A stretch of 64,000 nt of DNA from Mobula hypostoma (GCF_963921235.1 NC_086097.1:41108001-41172000), one strand, 5' to 3'; shown: positions 9,638 through 51,987, numbered from the stretch's first letter. Notes: generated from the sequence alone by a model not told the origin. Program-made: numbers and translations.

Positions 9638-10137
9638 TAACACAAAAGAGATTCTGCAGATGCTGAAAATCCAGAGTGACACATACAAATGCTGGAGGAA
9701 TTTCGCAGTGTCTGTGGGGAAAAATGAAGAGATCCTTCATCAACACAGGGAAGGAAAGGGAAGCTGTCAGAATAAGAAGATTGGGGGAGGGTAACGAGTA
9801 CAAGCTGGAAGGTGATAGGTGAAGTCAAATGAGGAGGATGGTAGGTGGGTGGAGGATGGAGGACTATGTGAGAAGCTTGCAGGTGATTGGTGGAAAACCT
9901 GAAGGGCTGATGGAAGCGGAGAGCGGACCATGGGAGAAAGGAAAGGAGCAGGGCCACTGGGGGTGGTGAGGTGGTGGTGACAGGCAGGCGAGGAGAAAAG
10001 AAGAGTTTAGAGGGGAGCTAGAATGGGGAATGGAAAAGGACAGATTGAGGATGTCATGTTAGGGGCTACTCAAAGGGAATATGAAGTGTTGCTCTTCCAA
10101 TCTGAGAGTGGCCTTATTGTTACAGTAAAGGAGAGTG
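9638..10137 (-). mobile_element. Penelope-like element 3' part, degraded
   Basis: Collinear with 23734-24412: same tail, purine-rich UTR (on +) and remnant LLYCNNKATLRLEEQHFIF; hammerhead partly deleted. Confidence 0.8.
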
Positions 10138-10640
10138 CAGTACAGTAAAAGTTTTTCATCTATTGCACTTAATAGTTTAGCCACTTCAAACACATCTTCA
10201 CCTCGGAAATAGGCAGCTTTGCTACTTCAACAAGTGTAGAAAACAGTCAAAACGCAGACTAGGAGGATCATGCCCCACTGAGGCAGCTAACGTCTGCTTA
10301 AGTGGAGATAAAATCAAATGGGTTGATCGAATGAGTTCACTCAGCATGTAAAGAACGCAAATGCAAGATTAATGGAATGGTACACAGTCTCTGCACAATA
10401 GGAGCATCATCTTAATGGCTATATCGCTTCTAAGAGGCGGAATATTTTATTTATTTGGGGTGGTGAAAAGGATGAAAGTAAGACGATAGAGAAGTAGAGA
10501 GGACTTTGGGGGACATTATTCAATGTGAAAGTCGGAAGAGTGATTGGGCAGATGATCGGCGAAGACCTGTGCATTGACTGCACATGTCACAGAAGAGCTT
10601 AGAGGCATCTACTTGGCGAAGAACCCTGCTAAAGCAAATA

Positions 10641-10742
10641 GCCCTGATGAAGAGTCTCAGCCCAACTTGTCTGACCTGCTGATTTCCTCCGGTATTTTGT
10701 GTTTATTACTCCGGATTTCCATCATCTGTAGAATCTCTTGTA
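10641..10742 (+). mobile_element. Short PLE 3' repeat with broken hammerhead
   Basis: CCCTGATGAAGAGTCTCAGCCCAA followed by the family tail CTGACCTGCTGATTTCCTCC...CATCTGTAGAATCTCTTG. Confidence 0.75.
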
Positions 10743-11049
10743 TCTCTGACTCAATCTGAGAATTGGGATGGGGGCGGAGGGCACAAAAACAGTAATAGCT
10801 TGATAAACTTGCTATTTATTTATAAGACAGCAATGGATGCAAAAGGGCATTTGAAAACCATGCCATCTTATTCTGCAAACAAAGGTCTATACAGATTCCC
10901 GCATTCTGGAAGATATGGGAAGACAAGGAACCCGACAATCTCCTCAATGTCTACGTCTGTGGGAGGTTCGCTCAGGTTCGGCTCCTGACAAACTAGATCA
11001 AGGAAATGGAGCTGGGTCTGGAGTTACACAGTATCATCTGGGAAACTGA

Positions 11050-12230
11050 AAGTCACAGACTTGCTGAGGAGTGATCACGTCCAAGGGACCAATTTCAGAT
11101 CGATGGCTGATTGTCAAGAGAAGGAAGCAGAGAAGGCAGTCAGTGCAGGGACTCCTTGGCCATCCCCTTCACAAATAGATAGACCTCATTGAGTGTGATG
11201 GTCTTTCTAGGGTGAGCAGTAGTAGTCCAGTCTTTGGCACTGTAATTTGCTCTGACAGTCAGAGGAAAAGTGTACAGTATGATAGGGCAATAATGATAGG
11301 AGACTAGATGGTGAGAGGTGACGGCAAAAGAGATGCCAGGGTGGGGTGTGCCTCTCTCAGGTACCAGTGTCAAGAATACCTCAGAGCAGCTACAGAAAAT
11401 TTGAGGATGGGGTGAGCAAGCAGCAGAGGTCATCCACTTTGGAAGGAAAAACAAAAGAGCAGATTATTATTTAAATAGCAAAAAAATTCAACATGCTGCT
11501 GTGCAGAGGGACTTGGGAGTGTTGGTGCATAAATCACAAAAAATTGGCTTGCTGCTGCAGCAGGCTGTCGAGAAGTCAAATGGAATGTTGGCCTTCATTG
11601 CTAGAGGGATTGAATTTAATAACAGGGAGGTTATGCTGCAACTGTACAGGGTACTGGCGAGGCCACACCTGGAGTACTGTGTGCAGTTCTGGTCTCCATA
11701 CTTAAAAGATGTACTAGCTTTAGAGGTGTTGCAGAGGAGGTTCACTGGGTTGACTCCAGAGATGAGGAGGGTTAGCCTATGAGGAGAGATTGAGTCGCCT
11801 GGGTCTTCTGAAATATACTGGAATTCAGAAGAATAAGAGGAGATCTTATAGAAACATATAAAATTATGAAAGGGATAGATAAGATAGAGGCAACAAAGTT
11901 GTTTCCACTGGTAGATGAAACTAGAACTAGGGGACATAGCCTCAACATTTGGGGGAGTAGATTTAGGATGGAGATGAGGAGGAACTACTTTTCCCAGAGA
12001 ATGGTGAATCTATGGAATTCTTTGCCCAATGAAGCAGTGAAGGCTACCTCAGTAAGTATACTTAAGACAAGGTTGGATAGATTTTTGCACAGCAGGGGAA
12101 TTAAGGGTTATGGGGAAAAGGTGGGTAGGTGGAGATGAGTTCGTGGCCAAACAGCCATGATCTTATTGAATGGGAGAGCAGGCTTGATGGGCCAGATGGC
12201 CTACTCCTGCTACTATTTCTTATGTTCTTG
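11050..12230 (+). mobile_element. CR1-clade LINE: possible ORF1 remnants joined to ORF2 C-terminus and 3' UTR
   Basis: QRDLGVLVHKS...RPHLEYCVQFWSPYLKD and TRTRGHSL...FSQRMVNLWNSLP; tail ATTTCTTATGTTCTTGTTC. The ORF1 assignment of 11050-11430 is tentative. Confidence 0.85.
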
Positions 12231-16158: not shown

Positions 16159-16835
16159 GAGGGTTAAACTCACCTCAACATGATGTTTTTTATAGTTAGG
16201 GTTGCCAACTTTCTCACTCCCAAATAAGGGACAAAAGTAGCAGTCAGATCCTGATGAAGGGTCCCGGCCCGAAACGTCGACTGTACCTCTTCCTGTAGAT
16301 GCTGCCTGGCCTGCTGTGTTCACCAGCATTTTTTGTGTGTGTTGGCGGGATGCTTGTGTTTACCCCGAGAAAGACTACCATGACTATGAAGCCTTGCGCG
16401 GGCACCTGTGTGCACATGCATGACGTGCGCATATGTGACGTGCTCATGCACGTACGTGCCGATTTTTTTTCCACATATCAGTTTTGGCTTAACCTTCCCG
16501 ACTACACTGTACATGCATTATTTCTACTTTATATAGGCTGTGTATTTAACTTATCATTCCTGCTTTTACTATATGTCAGAGTTGTTTTAGGTGTTATGTG
16601 TTATTTGGTATGATTTGGTAGGTTATTTTTTGAGTCTGGGAACGCTTAAAAATTTTTCCCATATAAATTAATGGTAATTGCTTCTTCGCTTCATGCCACT
16701 TCGGCACGAGAGGTTTCATAGGAACATTCTACTTTGGCGGGAAAAATATGGGACAAGGGCTGTCTGGTATAGGACAAACCAATTTAGACCAATATACCAG
16801 ATGTCCCGGCTAATACAGGACAGTTGGCAACCCTA
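16159..16835. mobile_element. Second hAT-type element nested in the first
   Basis: 8-bp direct repeat TGTTCAAG at 16151-16158 and 16836-16843; ends GAGGGTT...AACCCTA; perfect 14-bp inverted pair TAGGGTTGCCAACT (16197-16210) / AGTTGGCAACCCTA (16822-16835). Confidence 0.75.
16249..16284 (+). ncRNA. Minimal type I hammerhead motif in a short PLE repeat (repeat extends to about 16343)
   Basis: CTGATGA 16251-16257, extra A, helix II GGGT/GCCC, GAAAC-GTC 16271-16278. Core intact; helix I reduced to 2 adjacent bp by 5' truncation. Confidence 0.75.
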
Positions 16836-19500: not shown

Positions 19501-19616
19501 CCTTCAGTGTTCATCACATCAGGATTTGTTTCCAATGTTTATCACATCCTTCTCAGGACCTGTGCATGTTTTCTAAAAGAAGAGCAAGATCTGTACACAA
19601 TATAAATTTCCTACCT

Positions 19617-19752
19617 AAGGGTCTCAGCCCAAAATGTCGACTGTACTTTTTTTCCATCGATGCAGCCTGGCCTGCTGAGTTCCTCCCCTATCATGTGTAC
19701 GTGTGTGTGTTGCCTGGATTTCCAGCATCTGCAGATTTTCTTTTGTTTGTGA
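19617..19752 (+). mobile_element. Short PLE 3' repeat truncated inside the hammerhead
   Basis: Begins AAGGGTCTCAGCCCAAAATGTCGACTG (no CTGANGA box), then the family tail to GCATCTGCAGATTTTCTTTTGTTTGTG. Confidence 0.85.
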
Positions 19753-20702
19753 TTGAATATAAATGTAGACTTTTTTAAAAATATGTGCTGATGGGTTCAT
19801 TTGTGACTGTGCTACTTTCTGGCTACTTAAATCGCTGATGTTGCTAGCACATTTATGATATGATTCTCATCCATCCATGTTGTGCCCTTGTAAAACTTAA
19901 CATTTACCCTTTATGTAATTAAAGGAAAATGAAATACACTGATTACCAAAGCAAGATTATGTGAGACATCCAAACCAGCATATTTATGTGTGGAAGTGAC
20001 ATCAATGAGTCTATTCGTTGTCTTTAATTGCTGTAATCAGGCAAAATTTCATGTGTTTTTTATATGATAATGTAATCAAAGACTAATTTCTTACATTACT
20101 TAAGATATTTACACCTGGGGTACAACTAAGATGTGCTTACTATATGAAATCAGCTAAATTGCCTCCTATTAAGAAGTCTTAACCTGACATTTTGAATGTA
20201 TACTGAGTACTATGAATAAATTAAGTATGGACAGATGAAACCTGCAAAAACGATTAGTTTTAGTCAAGATTGATAACTTTGTCCCAATTGAATGATTTCT
20301 AGGTAACTGAAAGATAGGATGCTTTCCATCTATTCTGTTGCTAACTTGTATATATTGCCTTCTAGGTATCACTTTATCTGATTTAATCTCTGCTACTATT
20401 CTGACACAATGCTCCTCCCTTTGCTCTCAGTTCCTGCATTTCATGTAGTATATTCATATGTATCTCCAGAACCCTGACACACCTTGATCATCGTTCCTTT
20501 AGCAAGCACCATGCAAAATCCTCATTTCATACCTCAGCCTTTTATTTCCTCCATGAAATAATTTCCTTTTTCACTCTCCTTACAATTATTTTCCCGTTAG
20601 TGTGTCTATGGAAGGTTTTTGGATTCCCTTTCATGCCAGTTACCAATCCATTTTGTTCCTGTCTCTTAGCCCACATTTTCTTTTTCACTTACCCATACCA
20701 GA

Positions 20703-21058: not shown

Positions 21059-21194
21059 GGTCCTGACGAAGGGTGTCAGCCTGAAACGTCCACTGTATCT
21101 CTTCCTAGAGATGCTGCCTGGCCTGCTGCGTCCACCAGCAACTTTTATGTGTGTTGCTTGAAATTCCAGCATCTGCAGATTTCCTCGTGTTTGC
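21059..21194 (+). mobile_element. Short PLE 3' repeat with hammerhead core
   Basis: CTGACGA 21063-21069, AGG/CCT helix II, GAAACGTC 21083-21090 (first helix I pair mismatched), full family tail. Confidence 0.88.
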
Positions 21195-23415: not shown

Positions 23416-23791
23416 ATATGCGAACATGTGTTTGTATGTGCAAATATGTTTGTTTATGTTTATGCTTTCCATTAGCACAGGTGCATTACAGGCTGTGAGT
23501 TTAAACCCCTACTCTGCTCACTTTATACTTATTCCTGTGCGGCTAAGCACAGCTCCAATACCGTATTTAAGTTTGCCAATGACAGAGCTGTCATCAGCAG
23601 AATCAAAGAAGGTGGCGAGTCAGCATATAGGAGGGAGTCTGAAAATCTGGCTGAGTGGTGCCATGACAATGTCATCAAGACCAAGCAGCTGATTACTGAC
23701 TTCAGGAGGAGAAAACCAGAGGTCTAGGAGCCTCACACATCAAAGTTGCTGGTGAACGCAGCAGGCCAGGCAGCATCTATAGGAAGAAGCG

Positions 23792-23829
23792 CAGTCGACG
23801 TTTCAGGCCGAGACCCTTCGTCAGGACTA
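23792..23829 (-). ncRNA. Minimal type I hammerhead ribozyme, best-preserved copy
   Basis: Minus strand UAGUC-CUGACGA-AGG-GUCUCGG-CCU-GAAAC-GUC|GACUG: helix I UAGUC/GACUG, helix II AGG/CCU, both conserved boxes, palindromic ACGU in place of helix III. Confidence 0.88.
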
Positions 23830-24121
23830 ACTGAAGGAAGAGTGAGTAAGGGATTTGAAAGCTGGAGGGGGAGGGGGAGATGCAAAATGATAGGAGAAGA
23901 CAGGAGGGGGAGGGATGGAGCCAAGAGCTGGACAGGTGATAGGCAGAAGGGGATACGAGAGGATCATGGGACAGGAGGTCCGGGAAGAAAGACGGGGGGG
24001 GGGTGACCCAGAGGATGGGCAAGAGGTATATTCAGAGGGACAGAGGGAGAAAAAGGAGAGAGAGAGAAAGAATGTGTGCATTAAAAAGAGTAACAGATGG
24101 GGTACGAGGGGGAGGTGGGGC

Positions 24122-24412
24122 CTAGCGGAAGTTAGAGAAGTCAATGTTCATGCCATCAGGTTGGAGGCTACCCATACGGAATATAAGGTGTTGTTCCTCC
24201 AACCTGAGTGTGGCTTCATCTTTACAGTAGAGGAGGCCGTGGATAGACATGTCAGAATGGGAATGGGATGTGGAATTAAAATGTGTGGCCACTGGGAGAT
24301 CCTGCTTTCTCTGGCGGACAGAGCGTAGATGTTCAGCAAAGCGGTCTCCCAGTCTGCGTCGGGTCTCACCAATATATAAAAGGCCACATCGGGAGCACCG
24401 GACGCAGTATAT
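24122..24412 (-). pseudogene. PLE GIY-YIG endonuclease domain, 96-aa open frame without a start codon (absent from the ORF track)
   Basis: Manual translation: IYCVRCSRCGLLYIGETRRRLGDRFAEHLRSVRQRKQDLPVATHFNSTSHSHSDMSIHGLLYCKDEATLRLEEQHLIFRMGSLQPDGMNIDFSNFR*. Shows IY...YIG, CxxC with downstream His residues, and the R, E and N positions typical of PLE GIY-YIG domains. Confidence 0.92.
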
Positions 24413-25020
24413 CTATCCTTATTGGAGGGATCACAGGTGGAGAGGGTCAGCAACTTTAAATTCCTCAGTGTTATTATTTCAGAGGATGTGTCCTTGGCGT
24501 ATGTGCAATTACAAAGAAAGCATGGCAGCTCTTGTTTAGAAATTTACAAAGATTCGGCATGATATCTAAAACTTTTAACAAACTTCTATAGATATGTGGT
24601 GGTAAGTATATTGACTGGCTGTATCATGTGGAAACACTAATGCCCTTAAACAGAAAATCCTACAAAATCTGGTGGATACAGCTCAGTCCATCACAGGTAA
24701 AGCCCTTCCCACCATCGAGCACATCTACATAGAGTGGTGTTGCAGAAAAGCATCATCCATCATCAGGGACCCCTGCGACCCAGGTCATGCTCTCTTCTCA
24801 CTGTTGCCATCAGGAAGAAGGTACAGAAGCCTCAAGATTCACTCTACCAGGTTCAGGAACAGTTATTACCCCTCAACCATCAGGCTCCTGAACCAGAGGG
24901 GATAACTTCACTCAACTGTTCTCACAATCTATGTACTCACTTTCAAGGACTCTTCATCTCATGTTCTCAATATTTATTGCTTATTGATTTATCGTTATAT
25001 TTATTATCATTATATTTGTT

Positions 25021-25739: not shown

Positions 25740-27870
25740 GGAGATGACGAAGTAGATTGATGAAGGCAGGGCAATAGACATTGTCTACAAACGTACCTGG
25801 ACTTTACTAAGTTGATGGATAAAGTGTCTGGCGGTAGAATAGTTGAGGTGAGGGCATGTGAAATCCAAAATGAGTTGGCTAATTAATTCCCAACTGGGCG
25901 TGGTGGTAGGAGGCAAAGGATGATGATGGAAGAATGCTTTACTCATTGAAAATAGTGATATACCATAGGGATTGGTGCTGGGACCCTTATTGTTCGTGAT
26001 ATATATTAATGGCTGATTTAATTGTAAGAAGAATAATTTGTAGGTTTGTGAATGATGTGAAAATTTGTGATTTTGTGGGTAGCTAGGAAGGTTGTCCAGG
26101 GCTACAACAGGTTATAGGTCAGATGGAGAGGCGGGCAGTTTTGCAGATAGAATTTAGTCTCAACAATTGTCAGATGTTGCATTTTGGGAAGTTCAATAGA
26201 GGTTGGACATATACTATAAATAGGGCACTGAGGAATGTTTGTAAACTGAAGAACTTTTGGGTTCAGTCCATAGTTCCCTGTAAGAGGCAACACAATAGGA
26301 AGAGTAGTGAAAAAGGCATATTGCATGCTTGCCTTCAAAGATTAGGGAATGGAATATGTTACCACTTTACAAAACACTGGTTAGATGGCACATCTGTGTG
26401 GTTGGGTTTGCCAAACTGTACGTAGCACATGATTACACTAAAAAGAATGTAGAAGAGATTCACTGGGTTGCTGCTCTGATTGGAATTTTGGGGTGAGTCT
26501 GAATGGGGCTTTTTCAACCATATAAGATCCTGAAGGTGCTTGACAGGATAGATTTGATCACAAACAAGAGAAAATCTGCAGATGCTGGAAATCCTAGCAA
26601 TCCTTTGGAAGGACCAAAGGATCTTGGCCTGAAACATCGACTGTACTCTTTTCCATGGATGCCGCCTGGTCTGCTGAGTTCTTCCAGGATAGATTTGAGA
26701 TGTTTTCACTGGTAGGAAGTCACAAAATGTGGGGCATTACAACAGAATTAGGGCCAGTCTCTTAAAAAGGAGAAGCATATATGTTTCTTCTCTAAGAGTG
26801 ATGTGAATCTCTGGAATTCTCTGCCCCCAAGGGTGATGAAGGCCTGATCATTAAATATTGTTAAGGTGCAGATGGATGCAGAGAAATTGAAACACAAGAT
26901 GAAGTCCTAATGAAGCGTTTTGACTGAAAAATCGACTGCTTTTCCTCTCCAAAGATGCTGCCTGACCTGTTGAGTTTCTCCAGCATTCTGTGTTTGTTGT
27001 CTCAGATGCAGAGAAACTTTGGGGCTTATAGAGCCGTTAATGGAATGGTCAAGGAATTAGCTGGTAGAATTTGAAGTATTTTGAAAGATGTGATGTGTTC
27101 CACTTTAGTAGAAAAAATTACAAAAGCAAGACTATTTTTTAAATAGTAAGAGATTGGAAGTTGCTGGTGCTAAGAGAGGCCTCATTTTCTTTGAAGCAGA
27201 AAAATAATGTGCAATAACAGTGAGCAATTAAGATATCAAGTTGGCCTTTATTCTGAGATTACTGTACAAGTGTAAAGATACTTTTACTGTAATTATATAG
27301 AGACCCATTGAGATTAGCTCGAGAAAAATGGAAGGTGTTTTCATTACAATGTACATAATTGTTGCAGAGCTTGACAGGGTAAATGTGACATTGATGTTTC
27401 CCCAGTGGTCTATTGGGAATCGCAGACCATGGCCTCAAAAACAAAGTGGCCATTCAAAACAGAGGAAGGAAAATATCTCTACTCAAACAAAGGTAATCTT
27501 TGGATTTTTTTTTATCTAAGAGAACTTTGAAGACTCTGTCGCTGACTTTATTCAGGACAGTGATTGATTGATGGTAGGAAATCCTTCTCCTTAGCAGAAG
27601 AGTTTAAAACCAGAGAAGGTAGTTTATGGTAAGATTTGGAGGGGATCTGAGAAAGAATTTGTTCACTTGACAGATAATTGGGATCATCTGTGAGTGTGGT
27701 TGAGGTGGTTGAGGCAGCAACTCACACATTTAAGTGTCCAGACGAGCACACGGCACAGAGGGCTATGGGTCAAATCTTGCTGAATAGATTTAATAAATAG
27801 ATGGATACATATGGTTGGCGTGGATGTGAAGGGGTGTGGCTAAAAGGCCTGTTTCTGTACATGACTGACT
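25740..27870 (+). mobile_element. Cluster of old CR1 fragments with two inserted PLE repeats (about 26558-26687 and 26903-26999)
   Basis: Degenerate CR1 motifs (ATACCATAGGGATTGGTGCTGGGACCCTTATTGTTC; CQMLHFGKFN) and PLE tails GCCTGAAACATCGACTG and AGTCCTAATGAAG...ATCGACTG. Confidence 0.7.
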
Positions 27871-28185: not shown

Positions 28186-29767
28186 GTTTTTTTTTTCATT
28201 TGCTGTTAATCACAGCTATTTAGGTTTGTGGCATTTATGAGAAATACTATATTTATTTCTTTCTCACAAATGCTACAAACGTCTGCCTTGATTACATGAA
28301 CACAAAATTTACAACCTGCATAACATATGAGAAAGCCATTACCTGTAAGATACCAAAGATAAGAAATTTATTGCTCAATCAGTGTTCAGATCATCTGGTA
28401 ATCCATGCAAAAATGAACTCATAGGTAGAAACCAAGGGCAGAGAGATTGGGGTTAACCTTTGCTGGTGTATAAACACATTGCTTGGCTGGTGGCAAATTA
28501 TAGCCCTGCAAGAAGATCATAAAACTGATGGAAGATGTGCAGCTTTTAGTGAGGATTATCCTCAAAATAATGTGTTACTTTGTGGCCTGCCAAGGTCACA
28601 GTGCGAGTCACCCTGATTTATCACACTGCCACTATGCCACTGGATGGCAATCAGAGAAGGGCGTCAGCCCTTGAAGTCACACCCCCCCCCCCCATACCCA
28701 TTGCAGATGCACGTCAGGCTCTCTCAACTGGAATGGACAAGAGAATGACCAAAGAGGATCTAGAATTTCTGAAAAAGAAATTGAAGTGTTGGAGAATGAT
28801 CATCTTTGGGAGAGAGAAACCATGGCTGAGGTGTGATGCAAAAAGAAAATACCATCGCCTCACTGAAAATCTCATCAACCTAATTAATATATCTTTTTAA
28901 TGCTGATAATTTCCCAAATTCTATAAATGAATGCAAACAATAAAAAAATTATTCACTTCATGCCCTCTATTGGAGCAGAAACAGCTAGGAGTGGAGGAAG
29001 TCCTGCTGGATGGGAAGGGACTTCACATATACAGTCCCTCACCAGTCAAGAAGGACGGGTCTTCCTCAGGGACAGAAAGACAACTGAGGAACCCATTGAA
29101 TTAACTCCTATGTAATTGCACATTCTCTAAAGCACACTTTGTCAGTTTTCCCAAAATCTGAGTACTCGGGAAGCAGTGTGAGTGTTCTAATTTATAAGAA
29201 CTCGGCAGGTGAAGTGTAGTGTGTGTAAACATTGAACTCGATGGGTGGCGCTCTCTCCTTCCAGGATCTTGACGTCCAATTCGTGTTAAGAAGATTTTCA
29301 AACAGGCATTCCCTGATGATTGAAGTGTGCATCCTTTGCCAGGAAAACTTCCAACATGGCAACTTGTCTCTTGACTGGAAGTGCCTAGTCCAATTTCACA
29401 ACTGCTGCAATTTGCTGGAGAGTAGCAGACAAGCAATCTCACATCTTCCAGAGGATTGCTGGCTTCCCAGCATGCAGGCTGCACATGCAATGACTTGTGA
29501 TTGGCAGGTTTCAACTTAAATCAAAAGGATCCGCACACTCCTCACCCCACTGCCCGCCCAGACTGACTTTATGCAGTTACTGCTCGCATCCTGTTTGCAG
29601 TCATGATCTCTTGAATGAGGTGTGGGGGCTACCTGGCATGATAGTGTAGTTACTGACTCCAGTTATCAGTGAGGAGGTTGCAGATGGACATAAATGAAGC
29701 CCTAAATTGGCTCCAGGTGTTAACTGCCTTTAAAAACATGAGTTGCTGAAAATCTCGAGGAATATAG

Positions 29768-29940
29768 ACAAAATGCTGGATGAAGTTAGAAGCTCAGGTA
29801 GCATTTATGGAGAGGAATAAGCAGTTGATGTTTCGGGCTGAGATCTCAACCTGATGAACAGCTTTGGGCCCAAAATGTCAACTGTTTATTCCTCTTCGTA
29901 GATGCTGCCTGACCTGCTGAGTTCCTTCAGCATATTGTGT
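29768..29940. mobile_element. Inverted pair of PLE 3' repeats
   Basis: Minus-oriented tail 29768-29845 abuts a plus-oriented copy starting CCTGATGA (29850); the arms are mutually complementary. Confidence 0.85.
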
Positions 29941-30439
29941 GAGCTAAGTTTATAATTCACAGCCTGGTTTTAAGTAGTCCTTTGAAGAAGTTGTGATTCA
30001 TCCCCTTTGTAGTCTCTGCAACCGAAGAGCAACACGATTAGTTCTGGCTGCCCTCTACAAACACACTAATCAGGCAGCAGCAAGTGTGTGTGTGCTTCCT
30101 GCTCTGTGCGTTCTCCACACATCCCCATTTCTATACCTAGTTATGGGTATTAACCTACTTAGACCTCATTTGCCTCAGGTTTTCTCATTACTTTCTAAGA
30201 CTAAATAATAATTCATCTCATTTTAAAGTATTTTATCCATATTCATTCCCTACTTAGTTTAATATCACTGATAAGTTTGCATTTGAAGCTATTGAAGCAG
30301 ATTAGAAGGACTGGTCAGGCCAACGCTGATAGTTTGGGCCTCTGCAGCTGGACTTCATTATCGGAAGATCACTGTCAGTGCAGCTTGGTATTAACATCTT
30401 GCTGGTAATGAACGAGGATGTATGTTTAGTTCATTACTC

Positions 30440-31755: not shown

Positions 31756-32768
31756 CAGAATCAGGATTCGTATCACCAGCACGTGATGTAATATTTGTTA
31801 ACTTAGTAGCAGCAGTTCAATGCAATACAGAATATAAAAGAAAAAAATAAAATAATAATAAGTATGTAAATCTTATTCAGTATTCCTTATACGGTATACA
31901 TATATTGAATAGATTAAAAATCATGCAAAAAACAGAAATACTATATATTAAAAAAAAGTGAGGTAGTGTCCAAAGGTTCAATGTCTATTTAGGAATTTGA
32001 TAGCAGAGGGAAAGAAGCTGTTCCTGAATCGCTGAGTGTGTGGCTTCAGGCTTCTGTACCTCCTACCTGATGGTAACAATGAGAAAAGGGCATGCCCTGG
32101 GTGCTGTCTTTTTGAGACACTGCTCCTTGAAGATGTCCTGGGTATTTTGTAGGCTAGTACCTAAGATGGAGCCAACTAAATTTGCAACCCTCTGCAGCTT
32201 CTTTCGCTCCTGTGCAGTAGCCACCCCCCCCCCACCCCCGTACCAGGCAGTGATGCAGCCTGTCAGAATGCTCTCCACGGTACATCTATAGAAGTTTTTG
32301 AGTGTATTTGTTGGCATACCAAATCTCTTCAAACTTCTAATAAAGTATAGCCGCTGTCTTGCCTTCTTTATAACTGCATCAATATGTTGGGACCAGGTTA
32401 GATCCTCAGAGATCTTGACAGCCAGGAACTTAAAACTGCTCACTCTCTCCTCTTCTGATCCCTTTCTGAGGATTGGTATGTGTTCCTTCATCTTACCCTT
32501 CCGGAAGTCCACAATCAGCTCTTTTATCTTACTGACATTGAGTGCCAGCTTGTTGCTGTGACACCACTCCATTAGTTGGCATATCTCATGCCCGTACGCC
32601 CTCTCATCACCACCTGAGATTCTACCAACAACGGTTGGATCGTCAACAAATTTATAGATAGTATTTGAGCTATGCCTAGCCACACAGTCATGGGTATAGA
32701 GAGAGTAGAACATTGGGCTAAGCACACACCCCTGAGGTGCACTAGTGTTGATCGTCAGCACGGAGGAC
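31756..32768 (-). mobile_element. Rex1/Babar-like LINE, 5'-truncated, with a long open RT frame (32063-32821)
   Basis: APQGCVLSPMFYSLYTHDC...YKFVDDPTVVGRI...LNVSKIKELIVDFRK...KKARQRLYFIRSLKRF...VESILTGCITAWYG. Confidence 0.93.
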
Positions 32769-34121: not shown

Positions 34122-34475
34122 ACATAAATGTGAGAAAGTTTGCAGATGCTGTAAATCCAAACCAACACGCAAAATGCTGGAGCAACTGAACACCTCAGGC
34201 AGCATCAATGGAGAGGAATAGACAGTCAATGTTTCAGGCTGAAACTATTCATCAGGGTTGGAAAGGAAGGGGGAAAAAGCCAGAATAAGAAGGTGGATTG
34301 GGGGGAGGGTGTACAAGCTGGCAGGTGATAGATAAGACCAGGTGAGGGGGAAGGGGTTGAAATTAGAAGCTAGGAGATGGGTGGAAGCGGTAAAGAGCTG
34401 AAGAAGGAAGAAGCTGATAGGAGAGGAGAATGAACCATGGGAGAAAGGGAAGGAGGAGGGTCACCAGAGGGAGAT
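34122..34475 (-). mobile_element. PLE 3' UTR and tail, older subfamily, degenerate hammerhead
   Basis: Minus strand CCCTGATGAATAGTTTCAGCCTGAAACATTGACTG, plus the family tail and UTR. Confidence 0.82.
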
Positions 34476-36713: not shown

Positions 36714-37560
36714 GGCCTTCATAAATCAATGTCTTAAGTGCAGGAGTTGGGATATTATGTTGAAGTTGTGTAAGACGTTGGTGAGGCCTAATTTGGAGTA
36801 CTGTGTGCAGTTCTGGTCACATACTTGCAGGAAAGATATCAATAAGATTAAAAGAGTAAGGAGAAAATTTTAAGGACTTGAGTTATAGGGAAAGATTGAA
36901 TCAATTAGTACTTTATTTCCTGGAAATAAAGCCCAGAACACCCAATAGTTGTATAAGACACTGAAAATTTACAAGGATGTTGCCACGTCTGGAGAACCTG
37001 AGTTATAAGGAATGATTGAATAGGTTAGAACTTCATTCATTGGAATGGAGAAACTTGAGAGGAGATTTGATAGAGGTGTTCAAAATTATGAAGGGTAAAA
37101 TAGAATAAATGCAAGCAGGCTTTTTCCACTGAGACACGAGGAAATCTGCAGATGCTGGAATTTCAAGCAACACACACAAAAGTTGCTGGTGAACGCAGCA
37201 GGCCAGGCAGCATCTCTAGGAAGAGGGACAGTCTTGCTTCCTGGCCTGCTTTTTCCACTGAGGTTGGGCAAGACCAGAACTTGAAGTCTTATGTTAAGAG
37301 TGAAAGGTGTAATATTTAAGGGGTACCTGAGGGTGGGGGGGCTTTGAGAGGGTTGTGAGAGTGTGGAATGAGTCGCTAGAGGAAGTGGTAGATGCAGGTT
37401 CAACTTAAACATAAGAGGGAAAATTGGATAAATACATGGATGGGAGGAGAATGGAGGAATATCGTTCAGGTACAACCTGATAGGACTAGGAAGAATAGTT
37501 CAGCATGGATTAGAAGGGCCAAAAAGCCTTTTTTGGGCTGTAATACTCTGAGTCTATGAT
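36714..37560 (+). mobile_element. CR1-clade LINE 3' fragment
   Basis: GTGAGGCCTAATTTGGAGTACTGTGTGCAGTTCTGGTCA encodes VRPNLEYCVQFWS; CR1-type 3' end. Confidence 0.8.
37134..37247 (-). mobile_element. PLE 3' repeat starting at the hammerhead cleavage site, with 15-bp TSD
   Basis: Family tail 37134-37233, short inverted piece 37234-37247, direct repeat GCTTTTTCCACTGAG at 37119-37133 and 37248-37262. Confidence 0.9.
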
Positions 37561-39284: not shown

Positions 39285-42176
39285 TAGTCCATGAGCGAGT
39301 CGGGTTGGTCGGTACCATCTGAGGAAAATGATGCTCATAGTGATTTTTGGCAAGGTATACATTGCTAGAGTTAGAAAATATGTGATAGCATTGCACCAGT
39401 GGTAGCTTTATGTGTGCTATCATGCATTTTATAACACTACCCGAAAATAAGCATTTCTAAAAAGTGGCCAATATAAAGAACAACATATATATTCAACCTA
39501 GTAGTATTTTGTCACCAATGATCCTTCAACATTGAAATTTGTCACAATGATAGCCAAGTTCAAACGCTTTTCAACAAATGTTGTTATAAAATTCTACATT
39601 GAAAACTATGTCATTGGCGGCATTCGCAGTACAGTGCCCAGTTTCAGTAGAGTGAATCATTTCATTTTTAGATGAATATTTGTCTGGTGTTTTTTTTTGG
39701 AAAGTCAATAAAAACCCTAGGACACATATAATCACATGGATTTGTAGAGCATTTATTCAGTAATCACTTTTTGTATATATTCCATATTAACATCAGTACA
39801 GCAGAAAATGTTACCCCATTCCCCCCCCCCCCCCCAAAAGGTAAAAAACCTCATTTGGAGAGATTTCTGGAGTTTTATCAATGTCATGATACTTTCCATA
39901 TTGTTGTATCAAATCAAAACAATCTTAAGCTTTAAGCTTTTGTCATAGCATATAGAATTACAGTACAATAATTCAAATGTGGGGTTCCACACGGCCATAA
40001 CCTAGACCCCATTTGGTTGTAAAATGAATATATTTAATCAAAGACTGCTTTCCATAATTTCATAACCTATTAATAATCATAATAATTTTCCAAGTCTTCC
40101 ACATCTTCATCTGCACTTTCCACACTCTCTGAGGTGGATGCCTGGTTCTCACAGACTGCCAGTCTACACATGTCAGTACACCTGAGGCAATTTGCAACAC
40201 ACATACATCTTGGGAGTGAACATTTTTTTGGACAGTTACAGGCCAGTAGATCCAGGACGGCATCCGGTGCTGGCTGGCCTTCCATCCAGTGCACCACCAA
40301 CTGTTCAGCTTCCTCTTCTCTCTCCATCTTCCATCCTCTGCCAACAGGGCTTGGCACTTGTGGGTCCTTCTCCAAACATCTTCTCCATATACCAGCCTGG
40401 TAGCTGGCTCGCTGTGCATGTTTTGTTAAGCAGTCCTGGCATGGTGGGAGTTGATGACATTCAATTTCATAGATACCTGAGCTCATTGACCTTGGTGGTT
40501 GATGCTTTTGGGGCATACAGGAGAGAAAGGATATCCTCCATACGTAGACTACGTCCTTGTGCCATCTCGATGATGCATCCAAACAAGGACCTGTCTGCTT
40601 TCAAGATGATCACCCTCCCATCTGATTTCACTTCTCTCTTCTTACACATATCACTGAATGTTTTCAGCTTGTTGGTTTTCACTAGGCCATGGAATTTCTT
40701 TGCTGATGGGTCTTCCTCTAGTCTCTCATCCTTGAAGGTTGCATAGCATTGCTCACCAATCTCATATGCCTTCATCAGGTTGGAGGCAATGTCGTAGGGG
40801 GCTGCCTTTGCCATAGAGATGCTAATAAGGTCCCGCTTCTCTGCAAATGGGTTGACCCGTTCATGTATGGGGCTAACCACTGCTGAAACTGCTTCCTCAT
40901 CTTTCTGGATGCTTGGCCGCTCTGTTTTGTTGCCTTGCACCACCTCCCTTAACAGTCTCAGGAATGCACTGTGGTGCTCAGCTGTATGTAGTAACGCTTG
41001 ATAGCTCCAGCATTCAGGCTGAACTGTGATGTGCCTCCAGGAGTCTGTGTGTCTTTGTTCACTGTGGCTTCAAAAGCCTGGTCCGCAGGGATCTGTCCAA
41101 AGGGGTTGTTACTTGACAGCTGCACTGAGAATTGGCCTGTCTTGAAGGCCTCATACACAGAAGGATTCTTCTCTGGGAGGTTCACCATCTGAGCAAAGTA
41201 AGGGGACAGGTGCCTGACATAACTCATCTTATCATAGACAAAGCACCATGGGATCATGGTTCTTATAGCATGGAGGTACAACTCCCAGTCCCCCTCACGA
41301 GAGGCGTGCAGAAGCACTACGTAGAAGTACCACGTTCTCTACCATGTCAATGTATGATATCCAGAATGTGGACAGCTCTCCATTGTTGTGATGGAGGTGT
41401 TCCTGAAAGTCTGTCCACAAGGTTATCAGCTCAGCTAAGAGTGGACTTAGTGCAGCAGATTGTTCAACTTCAGTTCCCACTCCTCTCTGGAATGTTGTCT
41501 TCAACCCACGGTGTGAACTCAGCCCATGCGAGTCTCATCGGTGCTTCGTAGATGTACTTGCAGACCCTGACAGCACGATGGTAGTGTTTACCATCAAGGA
41601 CTCCATTGATGGAGTCCTCTGCGACAATTCCAGCCTCAATGCATACGTCCTTTAGACCAGCATCCCGAAATCACTTTCCTTGGATGGGTAAGGCATTACA
41701 TATGGTATGGAATATCCCCACCCTGAGAAAAATGTTGGAGAAGCCCTCTTTGTGCCTCCAGGCAATTTCAGTGGCTTTTGTACAGAGTGCTTGATCGATG
41801 ACTACCACAATTGTTTCGAGATGAAGTTTCATCCTGATTAGCTCTGATTGGTCCAGGATTTCAAATACTGTGGTCAACTCTGTGGCTGGTGAATTGATGG
41901 TTGGCAGATACCCAACAATATCTTATGAGATTGGTTCTTGGTCCCTGGTGCTGATATTAAAGCCAGTCCTGTTTGGGACTGTCTGATTCTTTGGATCTGT
42001 TTGCCTTGCAAGTGTCCACACCAGGTTCTTCTTGCAGGCAAGAAAGCTACCACCACTGCAATGCTATCACTTATTTTCTAGCACTAGGGGTGTATACCTT
42101 GCGAAAAATCACTATAAGAATTATTCCCCCCAGATGGTACTGGTGGCCCAAATTTGGGGTCCTGGCTCTTGGACTG
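39285..42176 (-). mobile_element. Academ-like (AcademX-type) DNA transposon, internally deleted
   Basis: Imperfect TIRs of about 125-135 bp (TAGTCCATGAGC... / ...GCTCTTGGACTG; shared GTACCATCTG, ATAGTGATTTTT, GCAAGGTATACA, GTGATAGCATTGCA); 3-bp TSD CAA at 39282-39284 and 42177-42179; coding remnants inside. Confidence 0.85.
40070..41990 (-). pseudogene. Fragmented Academ-type transposase with C-terminal Cys8 (tesmin/CXC-like) zinc finger
   Basis: VVIDQALCTKATEIAW...LRVGIFHTIC, ASREGDWELYL...FVYDKMSYVR, IPADQAFEATVNKD, KADRSLFG, QLPPCQDCLTKHAQRASYQAGIW, WMEGQPAPDAVLDLLACNCPKKCSLPRCMCVANCLRCTDMCRLAVCEN. Family call from motif memory. Confidence 0.75.
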
Positions 42177-42624
42177 CAATGGCCTAATTCTGCTCCTATG
42201 TCTTATGCCCCAATTGTATTATGGATGGTCTGTCCAGCCAGCACAGCACTGGCCTGGACTTCTATAGAGTGTCAGACTGGATTTTTGAGCTCCAGTCTCT
42301 GGATGAACCCTACTGACATATTGACAGCCAAGAGTAGCCTGGGTTCAGCTCCTCAAGTTTCCTATGCTGTAACTTCATAGAAGTCAGCATATTTCTGTCT
42401 GAGGATTTGGAACATGAACTGACATCGTGTGAATTGGCCTCCTTGTCAATACTTTTTTTTAAGTAATTGTGAAACCAAATCATTAGAACTTGCAAAGCTG
42501 CATGTTATTTTCTCCTTTTTCTTCATGGAAGTAAAAGAACAACACAACCTACTGACCTGGCCTGTCCTTTTCAAATTTACTGTCTTAGCTGGTAAACCCA
42601 GGTAACTGTGGCTCATTATTGGCT

Positions 42625-42830
42625 ACACACACAAAATGCTGGTAGAGCACAGCAGGCCAGGCAGCATCCATAGGAAGAGATACAGTCGACGCTTCAGGCC
42701 AAGACCCTTCGTCAGGTCTCAGCCCGAAAAGTCAACTGCACCTCTTCCTATAGATGCTGCCTGGCCTGCTGCGTTCACCAGCATTTTGTGTGTGTTACTT
42801 GAATTTCCAGCTTCTGCAGATTTTCTCGTG
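42625..42830. mobile_element. Inverted pair of PLE 3' repeats joined at the hammerhead
   Basis: Minus copy 42625-42716 (CTGACGAAGGGTCTTGGCCTGAAGCGTCGACTG) fused to a plus copy starting GGTCTCAGCCCGAAAAGTCAACTG. Confidence 0.9.
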
Positions 42831-42859
42831 CTCGTTATTAGTGGTTGCTTTTTTCAAAA

Positions 42860-45769: not shown

Positions 45770-47620
45770 GGACAGGCCATTCAGCCCATGATGCTGATTT
45801 ATACTAACTGGCCTCTTCCTGTGCATCACCCATATTACTCCATTTTTTTCATATTCAAATGTCTTCTTGAAGGTCTCTTAAACTCCACCAAACTGCCTGC
45901 TTCCATGACCATCAACAGTAATGTATTCCAGGCACTGACCACTCTGTGTATATAAAAAAAATACCTGCCCCTCATGTTAGTCTTTAAACTTCTCTCCCCC
46001 CCCCACCCTTAAAAATTCCTCTGGTATTTGATACTTCTATCCTGTGGAAAAGATTCTGACTCTATGTCTCTCAGAATTTAAAAATATGTCTATCAGACCT
46101 CTACTCAGCCTTGAAGTTCCAGGGTGAATAATGTAAGTTTGACCAACCTTTCCTTATAATTTATGTTGTCTAATCCAGCAAGTCCTCAAGTCCTGGTAAA
46201 CACTATTACATCCTTTCTACACTCTCCACATACCTATGATGGGGTAACCAAAAGATCTCACAATACTCCAAGTGTATCTGACTCAAGTTTTAAACAACAT
46301 CACCATGACTTCCTCATTCTTATATTCCCATTGGCGCACCTGCCAATGAAAGCAAACATACTGTGTATCTCATCATCCACTGACAGTCACTTTCAGGGAA
46401 CTATGGACTTAGACACTACGATTCCCTCTATATTTCAATGTTATTAAGGGGCCTAATGTTAACTGTGAACATATATCCTTCATTTGACTTCCCTAAGTGC
46501 ATCACCTCATGTTTGCCCAGATTAAACTCCATCGGCTACTTTTATGCCCATATCTGTAATTGATCTATATCCCACTGCACTCTTTGATGGCCCTTTACAC
46601 CACCCATAACTCCAATAACCTTGCAACATGCACAAAATGCTGGAAGAACTCGGCAGGCCAGGCAGCATCTGTGGAAAAGAATACAGTCAACGTTTTGGGC
46701 CGAGACCCTTCAGCAGGATGGGTTTGTGATTGGATTACTCCAATAACCTTGTTTCATGTGCAGATTTGCTAATTCACCTATCTACTTTTACTTTCAAGTC
46801 TTTGATGTATATAACCGAGGGCCTTGCGGAACACGAATGATCACGGCTTTCCAAAAGAGTAACAGCCTTCCATTTTTACTGTTTGTTTTCTATGAGGAAG
46901 CCAGTTCTGAATCCAAGCTTGCAAGGGATCCAGGGTGAATTGCATCTTTCTTCTGAATCAACCTACCATGAGGGACCTCATCAAATGCCTTATTAAAGTT
47001 CATGTAGATGATACCTACTGCCTCACCTTCAGCAAGACCCCTTGTCACCTCCTCAAAAAATTTGATGAAGTGTGTAAGGCATAACCTTCCCCCACACAAA
47101 GCCATTCTGACTGTCCCCAAGTGTGCCTTGGCCTTCCAAATGCACTTGAATCCTATCTGTAAGTATCATCTCCAATACTGTTACTACCATACATGAAGCT
47201 CACGGCCTATAATTATCTGGATTATCCCTATTTCCTTTCCCAAACAAAGGCACCACATTTGCAATTATTCTATTCTCTGGGACTTCTCATGTTGCTAGGG
47301 AGGACACAACGATCTTTGTCAAAGCCTCAACAATCTCCTCATTTGCTTCTGGGATTTATATCAGGATATATGCCATGGACTTGTTCATCTTAGTACTTTT
47401 CAGAAGACCCAGCACTACCTCCTCTTTAATCTCAAACTGTCTCAGCACATTAGCATGCCGACACTGCCTTCACTATCCTCCAAATCCTTCTCCTCAGTAA
47501 TTATTGACATAAAGTACTGATTTAGTACCTCAATCGCTTACTGTGACTCCAAGCACAAACTTCTCCTTTAACCCTGAGGAGGGATCAAACATCTTAGTGT
47601 TCTTCTTTTTCTTAATGTAA
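45770..47620 (-). mobile_element. Degraded CR1-clade LINE
   Basis: GRLCLTHFIKFFEEVTRGLAEGEAVGIIYMNFNKAFDEVPHGRLIQK at 46890-47120. Confidence 0.8.
46624..46736 (-). mobile_element. Short PLE repeat with mutated hammerhead and 15-bp TSD
   Basis: Minus strand TCCTGCTGAAGGGTCTCGGCCCAAAACGTTGACTG; direct repeat ACTCCAATAACCTTG at 46609-46623 and 46737-46751. Confidence 0.88.
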
Positions 47621-47706
47621 GAAACATTTTCTTAATGTAAGAACACGTTGTTTTAATGTGAGAATATTTGAGATGTGGTTGCAAAGAACGCATCTTTGAA
47701 GATAAA

Positions 47707-47843
47707 TCACAAACAAGAGGAAATCTGCTAGAAATCCAAGCAATACACGTAAAATGCTGGAGGAACTCAGCAGGCCAGGCAGCATCTGTGGAAAAGAGTA
47801 AACAGCCGATGTTTTGGGCTGAGACCTCCATTAGAATAGAAGG
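47707..47843 (-). mobile_element. Short PLE repeat, degenerate hammerhead
   Basis: GCTGGAGGAACTCAGCAGGCCAGGCAGCATCTGTGG...CAGCCGATGTTTTGGGCTGAGACC. Confidence 0.82.
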
Positions 47844-49002: not shown

Positions 49003-49345
49003 AATTCATTCATGATACTTGGCTATCGCTGACAATGCCAGCAGTTATTGTCCTCCCCTAATTGTTTTCACTTTGAGTGGGCTGCCTGGCTATTCCAGAG
49101 GATAGTCAATCACAAGCAGACAAGTAATGGTTAAGAAGGCAAATTTTCTATCCCCAAAGGCAGTACTGAACCAGATGGGTTTTGCAACAATCTGCTGGAT
49201 TCATGGTTACTGTTACTGATACTGGAGTTTTAATTCCATCTTTATTTGATTAATTGGAATTAAATTCCCCAGTTGCAGTGATGGAATTTGAACTCTCATC
49301 TCTGGATTATCACTGCAGAGATCTCTGTTGTCAACCCAGTGACAA
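49003..49345 (-). mobile_element. Old SINE with L2-type tail (possibly DeuSINE-like)
   Basis: ATTCATTCATG...GCTGACAATGCCAGCAGTTATTGTCCTCCCCTAATTG tail; head with a B-box-like GAGTTCAAATTCC on the minus strand. Confidence 0.5.
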
Positions 49346-50524
49346 AAATCACACTTGTTTCCTTTGCTACATAACTGACTATAGTCCCTGAAATATTGCA
49401 ATTTATTGCAAGTGCTTTGCATAAAGATTTTCATGTTTTCACATTTAAACGCAGCGTGGACGTGTCGACCTATAAACCACACACTACAAAGGATTGCCAG
49501 AATTCTAGTACACTGATAAATCATGGAATTAAAATTACAAAAGGAAAGCCTAATTTACAAACATTGCTCTTTTTTTGGAGAATCAGAATGATCTTAGCAT
49601 TTTTGTGCTGACAGTGAGTTGACAATTGAACTGGACCTGCACTCAACGAGGACAGGCATTAGAAGTTAGTCACATAGTGGCAGGCTGACATTGTCTGTTA
49701 GCTCTTTATTTTTGTTTGCTTTTACCGGAGGCAACTGTGCAGTCGTGTCTCTTCCAGCAAATTGGACAGCTGGCCACCAAGTGAGCATATGTAGATGACA
49801 GGCATTCATTGAAGTATTATTAAGAAGGTTAATGCTTTGACAGCAGACAATAGATGGCTGAATATGAAAGCAGGCACCTGGGATTTCAGTGGAAGTGAAT
49901 GAGAAAGTAGCAAAGTTTTCAGAAAATCCATCAGAAAGGCACACCTATTTAAATAAGCCTGGTGTATTTCTAAATTTAGAGAATGATGGAGATGAGGTTA
50001 TAATTAATGCAAGATCACAACTGGATACTTACTGAAAGATTAGGGTTGTGTTTTAATATTTTTTGAGCACCTCTTACTCAACTATACAGCAACAACTACT
50101 CGCAAGAGGCTTAACAGGATCCCATACAGAAATACATTTGGGTGGTTCTTCCATCAGAATGATCACTCTCCTTCAGTGGCTGCACTGTATACTTTCCAAA
50201 GTGTACACTGCGGCTTTTCCCAAACATATTTCAGTGGAATCTCCGGACCCTGAGGCCTTTGCAACTTTCCACTCTTGAGTGGTAAAATCATTGGCATGTT
50301 GTCAATATATGTTCTCCTCCACACCTTCCTGTTCTGGTCATACATTCTTCTTCTTCTTTCATCAGTTGATCATGGTATTATAGGAGCCATCTTTTATATC
50401 TAACCCTAACTAAGGACTCCTTTTCCCATACATTGCCGCAGTTAGAGAAGGCTCACCACTACTTCAGGATGGAGAGTAAAGGCTGGTTACCAGAGTGACC
50501 ATTTTCCAGATCAAGCAAAATAAG

Positions 50525-51140
50525 CCAGTCATTGTCATCAAGAAACTACTATAGATGTTTAGTGGAAAGTATATTTACTGGCAACATCACAGCCTGGTAT
50601 GGAAACACCAATGCCCTTGAACAGAGAATCCTACAAAAAGTAGTGAATACGACCCAGTACATCATGGGTAAAGTCCTCACAGCCACTGAGCATATCTACA
50701 TGAAACACTGTCTCAGGAAAGGGGCGTCCATTATCAGGGATCCCGATCATCCAGGACTTGCTATCTTCTCACTGCTTGCCATCAGGAAAAAGGTACAACA
50801 GCCTCAGGACTCTCACCACCAGGTTCAACAACAGCTACTACCCCTTAACGACCAGGGTTTTGAACCAAATGGGATAACTTCACTCAACTTCGCTTACCCC
50901 ATCATTGAAATGTTTCCAAAGCCAATGGACTCACTTCCAAGGACTCTTCAACTTATGGTCTCAATGTTTATTGCACAGTGTGTTGTCTTCTACACTCTGG
51001 AAGAACACTCTAGTTGGGTCGTCTCTCATTGATGATTATTCTATATTTTTATTGAATGTGGCCACAAGAAAATGAATCTCAGGGTTGTATGTGGTGACAT
51101 ATATGTACTTTGATTATAAATTTTACTTTGGACTTTGAAT
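50525..51140 (+). mobile_element. Rex1/Babar-like LINE 3' fragment
   Basis: NYYRCLVESIFTGNITAWYGNTNALEQRILQKVVNTTQYI; family tail. Confidence 0.85.
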
Positions 51141-51853
51141 AATTCAATTCTGCCATTCCATGTTGAAAGAAAAGATGATTGATTATATCACTGAGAGTTT
51201 AGATCTGACAGGTCATATATTAATTGGCCAAAGTGCTATTACTGCCAGTGCTCTTCAATGATTATAGTGTATGTTGGGGATGTTCTGAGGCTGTGACAAA
51301 TTGCTGTTTAAATGCTAGAATTGTTCCTTCTCCATGGAAGTAATTTCAAAAGTAGTCACTGAAGTGGTTTGTTTCATGCAGGAAGATAATGAAGCTAAAC
51401 CAAACATCGGGAGGAATGGATTATAAATCCTAGAGCATTGTTCACTCATTATAAGGAGCAATAAGATTGAACAGTGCAATGGGATTCCTGGCAAAACTAA
51501 AGGAGGTTTTAATTTCTCAGTAAAAGTGCAAGACTTTGGTATAAAGACAGGCTTAAAAGAAGAGTTCCATGTGGAACTTCTTGCACTTGCTGAAATGTGT
51601 CCCAGGCCCATGCCCTGGATGTACATAGGTCAGTCGCTTTTGCCAGTGGATCTACTATTACTTTGTCGAAGTGCATCGAGTTGAATTCAACAGCAGAGTT
51701 GAATTACGCAGGGATTCCACAGTTTTATGCTAGGGAGCCTGGTTTTTCAAACCTGCCTTGGGATCAGAGGCACCATGCTTTTGAATGTGGATATTTAGTG
51801 AACTGTATGGTGTAGATTTTTTTGTAATTACTTTATGTCTAAAGGTTTTTTTT

Positions 51854-51987
51854 AAACACGAGATTCTACACTTGCTGGAAATCTAAAGTAACACATACAA
51901 GAATGCTGGAGGAACTCAGCAGGTCAGGCAGCATTTATGGAACTGCATAAAGAGTCAACATTTGGGCCAAGACGCTTCATCAGGACA
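51854..51987 (-). mobile_element. Short PLE repeat, degenerate hammerhead
   Basis: Minus strand GTCCTGATGAAGCGTCTTGGCCCAAATGTTGACTC followed by the family tail. Confidence 0.82.

Follow-up and report, generated by a model that had tools for sequence, protein, structure and literature searches.

Dispersed hammerhead-bearing ends of a Penelope-like element in Mobula hypostoma share a sharp 5' edge at the ribozyme

A 64,000-nt stretch of DNA from the ray Mobula hypostoma (GCF_963921235.1 NC_086097.1:41108001-41172000), hereafter the window and numbered from its first letter, contains dispersed repeats with a hammerhead ribozyme motif that belong to a Penelope-like element (PLE). The first-pass annotation named 15 such loci, and BLAST and alignment confirmed the hammerhead-bearing PLE repeat at all 15. 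The copy listed at 19617 really begins at 19609. A profile search of the window, with a profile trained on 14 of the 19 arms it recovers, detected these 19 arms at 16 loci with scores of 12.4-124 bits, whereas 10 block shuffles reached at most 8.2 bits and the reversed window 1.5 bits. Within the repeat, we count from the T of TCCTGA that follows AG (+1); core residue C3 is then +3 and the cut is placed between +30 and +31. With 16 loci in 64 kb the repeats are dense, and the short copies, at 95-145 nt, approach unit length. Instead of being scattered, the 5' ends form a pile: 8-10 of 15 direct arms start within five bases, at the upstream edge of the ribozyme.

Judged by their sequence, the repeats are the 3' ends of an endonuclease-bearing (EN+), Neptune-type PLE. 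The long copy at 23734..24418 (minus strand) consists of the end of an open reading frame (ORF; 24400-24122), a 296-nt untranslated region (UTR) with 79% pyrimidine, a complete hammerhead and a 3' end of the shorter of two classes, termed inner below. Its ORF end (24122-24400) reads CxxC..LYIG..H..H; the Pfam match to GIY-YIG has E 0.005, below the curated cut-off, and the best protein matches come from the rays Mobula hypostoma (95%) and Hypanus sabinus (89%). A CX2-5CxxC linker between reverse transcriptase (RT) and endonuclease occurs in Neptune and Nematis and is absent from Penelope/Poseidon (PMC8557442; here and below, statements on cited papers refer to those parts of them that were available). 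The window copy is truncated before this linker, which was read in relatives: P0002 and P0003, 95% and 89% identical to the window ORF end, both carry the CX4CXXC linker CKRNKCYTC. P0002 also carries a YIDD motif, the RT part lying outside the window, and distant full-length relatives of 890 aa (40-47% identity) carry RVT_1 plus GIY-YIG. Two further ray gene models, P0004 and P0006, named kinase isoform and mucin isoform, include the PLE endonuclease end, which suggests exonisation or mis-annotation.

EN+ Neptune-type PLEs (PMC8557442; PMC3846280) share with our element the C-terminal GIY-YIG domain, the linker (in the 95%-identical ray protein), the hammerhead in a terminal repeat, strong 5' truncation, an adjacent inverted 5' copy, a 30-40-nt tail at one end and variable target site duplications (TSDs). 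Truncation is, however, called frequent or variable there, with no mention of a pile within five bases, and the window holds no full-length or partial-tandem (pLTR-ORF-pLTR, where pLTR is a pseudo-long terminal repeat) copy.

The 23734 copy bears the only complete hammerhead. Helix I pairs 23829-23825 with 23796-23792, the cut lies between 23797 and 23796, and +1 is 23826. Core boxes, helices I and II and the cut triplet identify it as a minimal type I hammerhead, whose self-cleavage is only predicted. Direct reading against PMC4209133 bears out the annotation's view of the copies as PLE ends with minimal hammerheads: in common with the minimal type I motifs of that paper are the CUGANGA and GAAA boxes, an extra A before helix II, a palindromic minimal helix III and the occurrence of dispersed single motifs tied to truncated PLEs. 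Rfam models gave no hammerhead match, either across the window (E<=1) or within 23740-23880 (E<=10), and shuffled sequences fold as stably as the hammerhead does (z -0.10). Both core boxes are kept in 3 of the 12 arms checked. Only 23734 keeps helix I, because elsewhere the breakpoint removes most of its 5' strand; in this, most dispersed copies of the window differ from those of PMC4209133. Such loss at the breakpoint would be a reason for dispersed single motifs that the available parts of PMC4209133 do not propose. In the youngest subfamily the core reads CTGACGA (23819-23821, 21066-21068) and is devoid of the ATG found there in other subfamilies, in which the frame opened by this ATG closes after about 15-21 codons.

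Direct arms of short copies start at -2 (10641, 26903), -1 (21059, 51854) and +1 (16249, 19617, 46624, 47707); further starts are at +2 (29850, 42625), +9 (26617) and +31 (37134). Long copies begin at about -392 (9638), about -205 (34132) and -592 (23734). The interval -2..+2 around AG|TCCTGA, which is the 5' edge of hammerhead helix I, holds ten of 15 starts at face value, or eight on a conservative count, since pyrimidine-like letters upstream of 21059 and 47707 may extend these copies to -17 and -10. When truncation was simulated as a geometric process, none of 200,000 trials matched the pile in one 5-nt window, whether direct, all or short arms were taken and with either count (p < 1e-5). 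Under a harsh uniform null over 81 nt, 1 of 200,000 trials did so at face value and 17 of 200,000 conservatively. The suggestion of the first-pass annotation that 5' ends of these PLE copies are clustered and non-random is thereby upheld. The pile has a firm upstream edge, with few ends between +3 and +95, and is seen in several subfamilies. As a check on ascertainment, the profile search found truncation downstream of the ribozyme core only in 37134, one inverted tail arm and a decayed fragment at 62115. Single arms that directly abut unrelated host DNA have this start too (16249, 19617, 51854, 10641), and in two of the head-to-head pairs the arms end at the ribozyme with no more than about 10 nt between their ends (+2 and +12; +2 and +7/+10). 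No upstream exon-like sequence is common to the short copies. We did not find 5' ends piled at the upstream edge of the ribozyme described in print, in a search of titles and abstract openings that left Repbase/Dfam, Arkhipova 2006 and the Xena paper outside it; the sharp edge, which has a bearing on PLE replication, may be a new property of an otherwise known kind of element with known anatomy.

An apparent edge could arise if subfamilies share a conserved ribozyme but differ in the UTR, in which case alignments would only seem to start there. This effect is visible in contig data described below, at 23792, 24128 and partly 23828. Within the window it is largely refuted. The 20 nt upstream of ten short starts contain 5-14 pyrimidines versus 16 and 19 in two long copies, so these flanks are not overlooked UTR; immediately upstream of copies there are TSDs or inverted tails; and searches of the window with the UTR recover only the three long copies. 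We regard such an artefact as a very improbable source of the pile.

The annotation had also proposed that ribozyme cleavage or folding sets the 5' ends, or that the unit behaves as a retrozyme-like module. With cleavage or a retrozyme, self-cleaved monomers or circles would be the template. Two facts agree with this: copy 37134 starts exactly at GACTG, the cut site, and 23734 has a complete minimal hammerhead. But the cut is about 30 nt downstream of the pile, 37134 is the sole one of 19 arms that starts at +31, and even this copy has an inverted piece at its junction. Among 15 tandem-repeat rows, no array with a hammerhead per unit was found, only head-to-head pairs. No cut-site end is present among the 24 loose ends listed for the contigs, which is inconclusive, and in the anole PLE, cleavage is dispensable and cut-site reads are absent (PMC11167929). 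Non-LTR retrozymes (PMC7229834; bioRxiv 10.64898/2026.07.22.740005) do resemble our repeats in their type I hammerhead, short units, PLE ancestry and dispersed monomers; in the window, in contrast, ribozyme-bearing tandem units are missing, the unit is not bounded by the cut site and 3' ends fall at PLE priming sites. Cleavage as the determinant of the ends and a retrozyme-like module both fail on the position of the ends and the missing arrays, and the two together retain a very slim chance at most. Arrest of RT by the ribozyme fold fits poorly as well, since the ends are on the exit side of the motif for RT and not on its entry side, and shuffled sequence folds just as stably.

The 3' ends of direct arms form two classes, seven near +80..+104 (inner) and eight near +130..+143 (outer). 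An inverted arm derived from the tail lies 5' of five out of seven direct arms in the inner class and of none out of eight in the outer class (Fisher p 0.007); if an internal inverted piece at 37134 is counted, the outer-ended class rises to 1 of 8 (Fisher p 0.04). The inverted arm measures 10-15 nt at 26903 and 46624, where it matches the tail of the respective subfamily; at 26558 it stops precisely on the inner site, and at 29743 and 42716 it continues as far as the ribozyme. The PLE hallmark of a one-end tail with an adjacent inverted 5' copy, both known features (PMC8557442, PMC3846280), is hence seen in the window, where 5 of 15 loci have such an inverted arm made of tail sequence. Head-to-head pairs make up three of the loci (26558/26617, 29743/29850, 42625/42716). 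We infer that the pairs represent two cDNAs, one from each nick; fold-back of an inner arm alone cannot yield an outer-ended arm. TSDs of 12-15 bp were detected at 4 of 15 loci, scoring above all 210 mismatched-flank control pairs; three loci have weak candidates and eight have none, the search at 9638 having used too short a boundary.

Similar behaviour is known from the Anolis Poseidon element PAc (PMC11167929), in which both strands are nicked and extended, uncleaved RNA is primed internally, two internal priming sites bound the tail, and 5'-truncated templates give shorter products. As in PAc, the two priming sites are about 30-40 nt apart downstream of the hammerhead, and nicking and extension of both strands and use of uncleaved RNA are likenesses too. 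PAc differs in clade (the window element has the linker motif), and its ORF starts inside the ribozyme, an arrangement not recovered for the window element. The main-text parts of PMC11167929 that were available contain no analysis of genomic 5' ends.

Paired arms raise another explanation, namely that cDNAs differing in length are trimmed to, or annealed at, a short self-complementary stretch, CCT-N5-AGG (+2..+12), and helix I sequences, and that repair, not synthesis, sets the ends. Consistent with it, the arms overlap by CCT/AGG at the 42625/42716 junction, an 8-bp inverted repeat marks the 26617 junction, three arms start at about +7..+12, and palindromes occur at inverted junctions of PLEs (PMC3846280). 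The single arms on unrelated host DNA, which have the same start, speak against such a joining hot spot, and fold-back of the inner arm cannot produce the outer-ended second arm at 42625 or 29743. On balance we consider it unlikely.

A phylogenetic tree groups the long copy 23734 with five arms that are short or inverted (support 99/98) and places other short copies outside this clade; the tree rests on 96 columns and 10 of its 12 forks are weak. This bears on the proposal of the annotation that the unit is a module resembling short interspersed nuclear elements (SINEs). On such a reading, short copies would be transcribed from an internal promoter and re-copied in trans as non-autonomous lineages. 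Near-unit length, density in the window and TSDs would suit it, and non-autonomous PLE derivatives exist (PMC8557442; bioRxiv 10.64898/2026.07.22.740005). Yet there is no short-only clade, -2/-1 is lost in most short copies, and 3' ends fall into two priming classes. A single SINE master is disfavoured because the long copy nests among short ones and the 3' ends are those of two PLE priming classes; a looser version, in which unit-length RNAs would be copied in trans, may still apply. A general Rfam scan gave no tRNA, 7SL or 5S match at the copies; no scan for Pol III boxes was run. Taken as a whole, a SINE-like origin strikes us as quite unlikely.

The reading we favour, with a probability of about 0.45, is that the pile consists of run-off cDNA, internally primed on uncleaved RNA that would begin at about -2. 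It is preferred because the edge is firm, is present across subfamilies and is reached by both arms of two pairs, and because no upstream exon is shared. According to this scenario, the element's protein would nick both target strands, leaving the 12-15-bp duplications (as shown for the anole PLE, PMC11167929). Reverse transcription would prime inside the RNA, downstream of the hammerhead, at about +80..+104 (inner) or +130..+143 (outer). In the window, outer ends predominate among single arms, and most inner-ended arms have an inverted arm from the outer site on their 5' side, the pattern to be expected where both nicks prime and microhomology joins the two cDNAs. Since copies keep the core upstream of the cut site, the template was not ribozyme-cut. 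Most cDNAs would stop at -2..+2 by running off the 5' end of the RNA, with 0-4 nt lost at joining. The start of the RNA would fall near the A of AGTCC, where an initiator-like site overlaps helix I, and long copies may stem from RNAs started further upstream. The template may be element mRNA primed near its 5' end, or a transcript begun in the 3' pseudo-LTR, which can drive transcription (PMC2377424). The predictions of run-off are an RNA with its capped 5' end at -2 and breakpoints without a peak at +31.

Several observations weigh against run-off. It draws on 15 loci in one window. The likeness to an initiator is weak: matching 7-mers turn up 5-6 times per 340-390 nt of sequence from the three long copies, with one at -2 in 23734 only; the AG of the -2 site is equally splice-acceptor-like, both motifs being common in the UTR. 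That the module heads the ORF is unsupported, with no match among 159 proteins or with the module translation, though this is weak evidence. In Drosophila virilis Penelope (PMC2377424), transcription starts about 120 nt upstream of the helix I point, and in Drosophila Penelope the 3' end of an intron maps to helix I.

Public sequence yields evidence on both sides. Four runs (two DNA, two guessed to be RNA; two organisms) were mapped to 23701-24420 at 85% likeness, and all four consist of contigs, which cannot show RNA starts. The largest upstream-facing loose end listed is at 23828 (-2), with 479, 462, 60 and 49 contigs in the four runs and the next one listed in the two DNA runs at 66 and 55; these counts come from 24 loose ends listed out of 24 + 2415, a listing that is not purely ranked by count, and the counts of the DNA runs are saturated. 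The consensus beyond 23828 is the pyrimidine tract of another subfamily, so that this peak is partly a homology-boundary artefact. In favour of a real component, its loose parts have medians of 133 and 196 nt and agreement of 0.39 and 0.38, compared with about 0.6 and 11-75 nt at sites of pure subfamily switch; by a rough mixture estimate, 18-34% of the 23828 loose ends derive from shared upstream sequence. The ORF end has 56-58% of the summed DNA depth of the module (4.28 against 7.62 million, and 3.2 against 5.51 million), where contig depth is not copy number; there is accordingly no great cliff, and long copies may be more frequent across the genome than in the window, in which 2 of 15 loci reach the ORF. 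Pattern scans of viral contigs (1 match) and metagenome contigs (114) yielded chance short matches, none longer than 44 nt among the BLAST matches listed.

The same contigs touch on an alternative in which the template is long unspliced RNA and RT stops at a roadblock at the UTR boundary, i.e. on meeting the pyrimidine tract and AG. The cause would be proteins bound there that recognise 3' splice sites or pyrimidines, or melting of the rU:dA-rich hybrid. The ends do coincide with the edge of the 76-80% pyrimidine UTR and an acceptor-like AG, and two copies possibly extend to -10 and -17. For the runs guessed to be RNA, RNA/DNA depth over the UTR is 0.014 versus 0.043-0.059, and 0.052 versus 0.116-0.128, for ORF end and module, i.e. 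2-4-fold lower; this weak hint of an intron is tempered by the fact that contig depth cannot rank parts and that other subfamilies do not map at the UTR, a mismatch from which the dip can arise. PLEs retrotranspose unspliced RNA (PMC8557442), and the Drosophila Penelope intron ends at helix I (PMC4209133), which, together with the start about 120 nt upstream, keeps this alternative alive. On the other side, melting should scatter ends into the tract, whereas 8 of 10 stop at or before -2; the tract was read through in three copies; and no clean splice joint is found among the 15 joints listed out of 15 + 287. A roadblock thus appears doubtful, if better placed than a joining hot spot.

Related templates were considered and rejected. 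Joints 23828-24127 and 23828-24135 were discarded as splices, as unknown letters lie between and one of them also occurs in a DNA run. A spliced template conflicts with the lack of a shared upstream exon in short copies. Selection against an acceptor in host introns would, by reasoning, remove long copies without concentrating ends at a single position. With a lariat intermediate as template, stops would be expected at the branch point, about -18 to -30, not at the pile. Separately, other subfamilies read the splice-donor-like G|GTAATT at the ORF stop codon (24122-24135, contigs), and with the acceptor-like AG at 23827 it would possibly bracket the 300-nt UTR as an intron.

Individual loci illustrate the two kinds of ends. 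Besides 23734, two copies are long. That at 9642..10137 (minus) is decayed and retains the ORF end, a pyrimidine-rich UTR, a partly deleted hammerhead region and an outer 3' end, as traced by tblastn (10121-10032), by nhmmer to the 23734 and 34132 UTRs and by the profile. That at 34128..34464 (minus), decayed and of another subfamily, holds about 205 nt of UTR, the hammerhead region and an outer 3' end. Short copies with outer or inner 3' ends and no inverted arm are as follows. The copy at 10640..10743 (plus) starts at -2, is deleted from helix II to about +55 and ends at the outer site; like 9638, it carries an internal deletion in the ribozyme region. The copy at 16249..16341 (plus; +1, inner 3' end, no TSD found) has both core boxes intact and has lost the helix I 5' strand; it lies within sequence beginning TAGGGTTGCCAAC (window 16175-16420) that looks similar to a DNA transposon end. 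At 19609..19755 (plus; +1, outer), an 11-bp direct repeat with one mismatch abuts both ends as a candidate TSD, with score 9, which 5 of 210 control pairs reach. The remaining outer-ended ones are the young copy at 21060..21193 (plus; -1, possibly -17), 47705..47836 (minus; +1, possibly -10; weak TSD candidate) and 51854..51986 (minus; -1).

Inverted arms accompany the following insertions. At 26559..26690, an inverted tail arm (about 26559-26600, minus) that ends at the inner site meets a direct arm (26616-26690, plus) within a 14-bp TSD; the junction holds a perfect 8-bp inverted repeat, which surrounds a 5-nt loop (26594-26624) and looks like templated filler from end joining. The insertion at 26888..27003 (plus) is composed of a 12-bp TSD (score 12 vs a control maximum of 10), about 15 nt with an inverted tail-end piece, and a short copy from -2 (26903) to the inner 3' end. 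Analogously, 46624..46736 (minus) has a 15-bp TSD (score 16), 15-18 nt with an inverted tail-end piece, and a short copy from +1 (46718) to the inner 3' end. The pair at 29741..29941, for which no TSD was found, joins an inverted arm (29741-29847, minus; about +7/+10 to +117) to a direct arm (29850-29941, plus; +2 to the inner end). In the pair at 42625..42832, a direct arm (42625-42716, minus; +2 to the inner end) and an inverted arm (42714-42832, plus; +12 to the outer end) have CCT/AGG in common at the junction, with a weak 10-bp TSD candidate. The young copy at 37134..37247 (minus) starts with GACTG at the cut site (+31); a short internal piece in inverted orientation lies ahead of it, and the TSD is 15 bp long. 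The 16th locus, beyond the range covered by the first-pass annotation, is the decayed fragment 62115..62150 (minus; +20 to +55; 12.4 bits, E 0.0034).

The window itself looks like animal intergenic or intronic DNA, rich in decayed pieces of long interspersed nuclear elements (LINEs). LINE RT remnants were found at 7156-8283 (plus; RVT_1 E 7e-23) and 32063-32824 (minus; RVT_1 E 8e-08), with similar pieces near 11405, 17282 and 52550. A 201-aa open frame at 53645-54253 (minus), with coiled-coil Pfam hints only, presumably resembles LINE ORF1. The region 40060-42400 is GC-richer, single-copy in the window, and shows overlapping broken frames and a cysteine-rich motif; it gave no Pfam match in the three frames tested and is possibly a decayed DNA transposon.

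The arrangement at the edge has a parallel in Drosophila virilis Penelope (PMC2377424), where a pseudo-LTR region lies upstream of the hammerhead and helix I overlaps a YAG after a pyrimidine tract; short copies in the window differ in showing no spliced upstream exon. Under the run-off reading, the sharp genomic 5' edge, the two priming classes and the paired arms would together be a fossil record of template start and two-primer insertion. The replication mode of PLEs and the role of their hammerhead are open questions, and cleavage was dispensable in the one in vitro study. It is conceivable, though we hold it only tentatively, that PLEs routinely make a product resembling 'strong-stop' DNA: with an initiator in helix I, a dimeric protein would prime 95-145 nt downstream from both nicks and so generate unit-length heads. 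If this is true, the minimal hammerhead would mark an RNA start and a protein-binding module, not a cut. Dispersed single hammerheads, head-to-head inverted ends and the one-sided tail would then be explained, and the unit-length heads would be the seeds of PLE-derived retrozymes.

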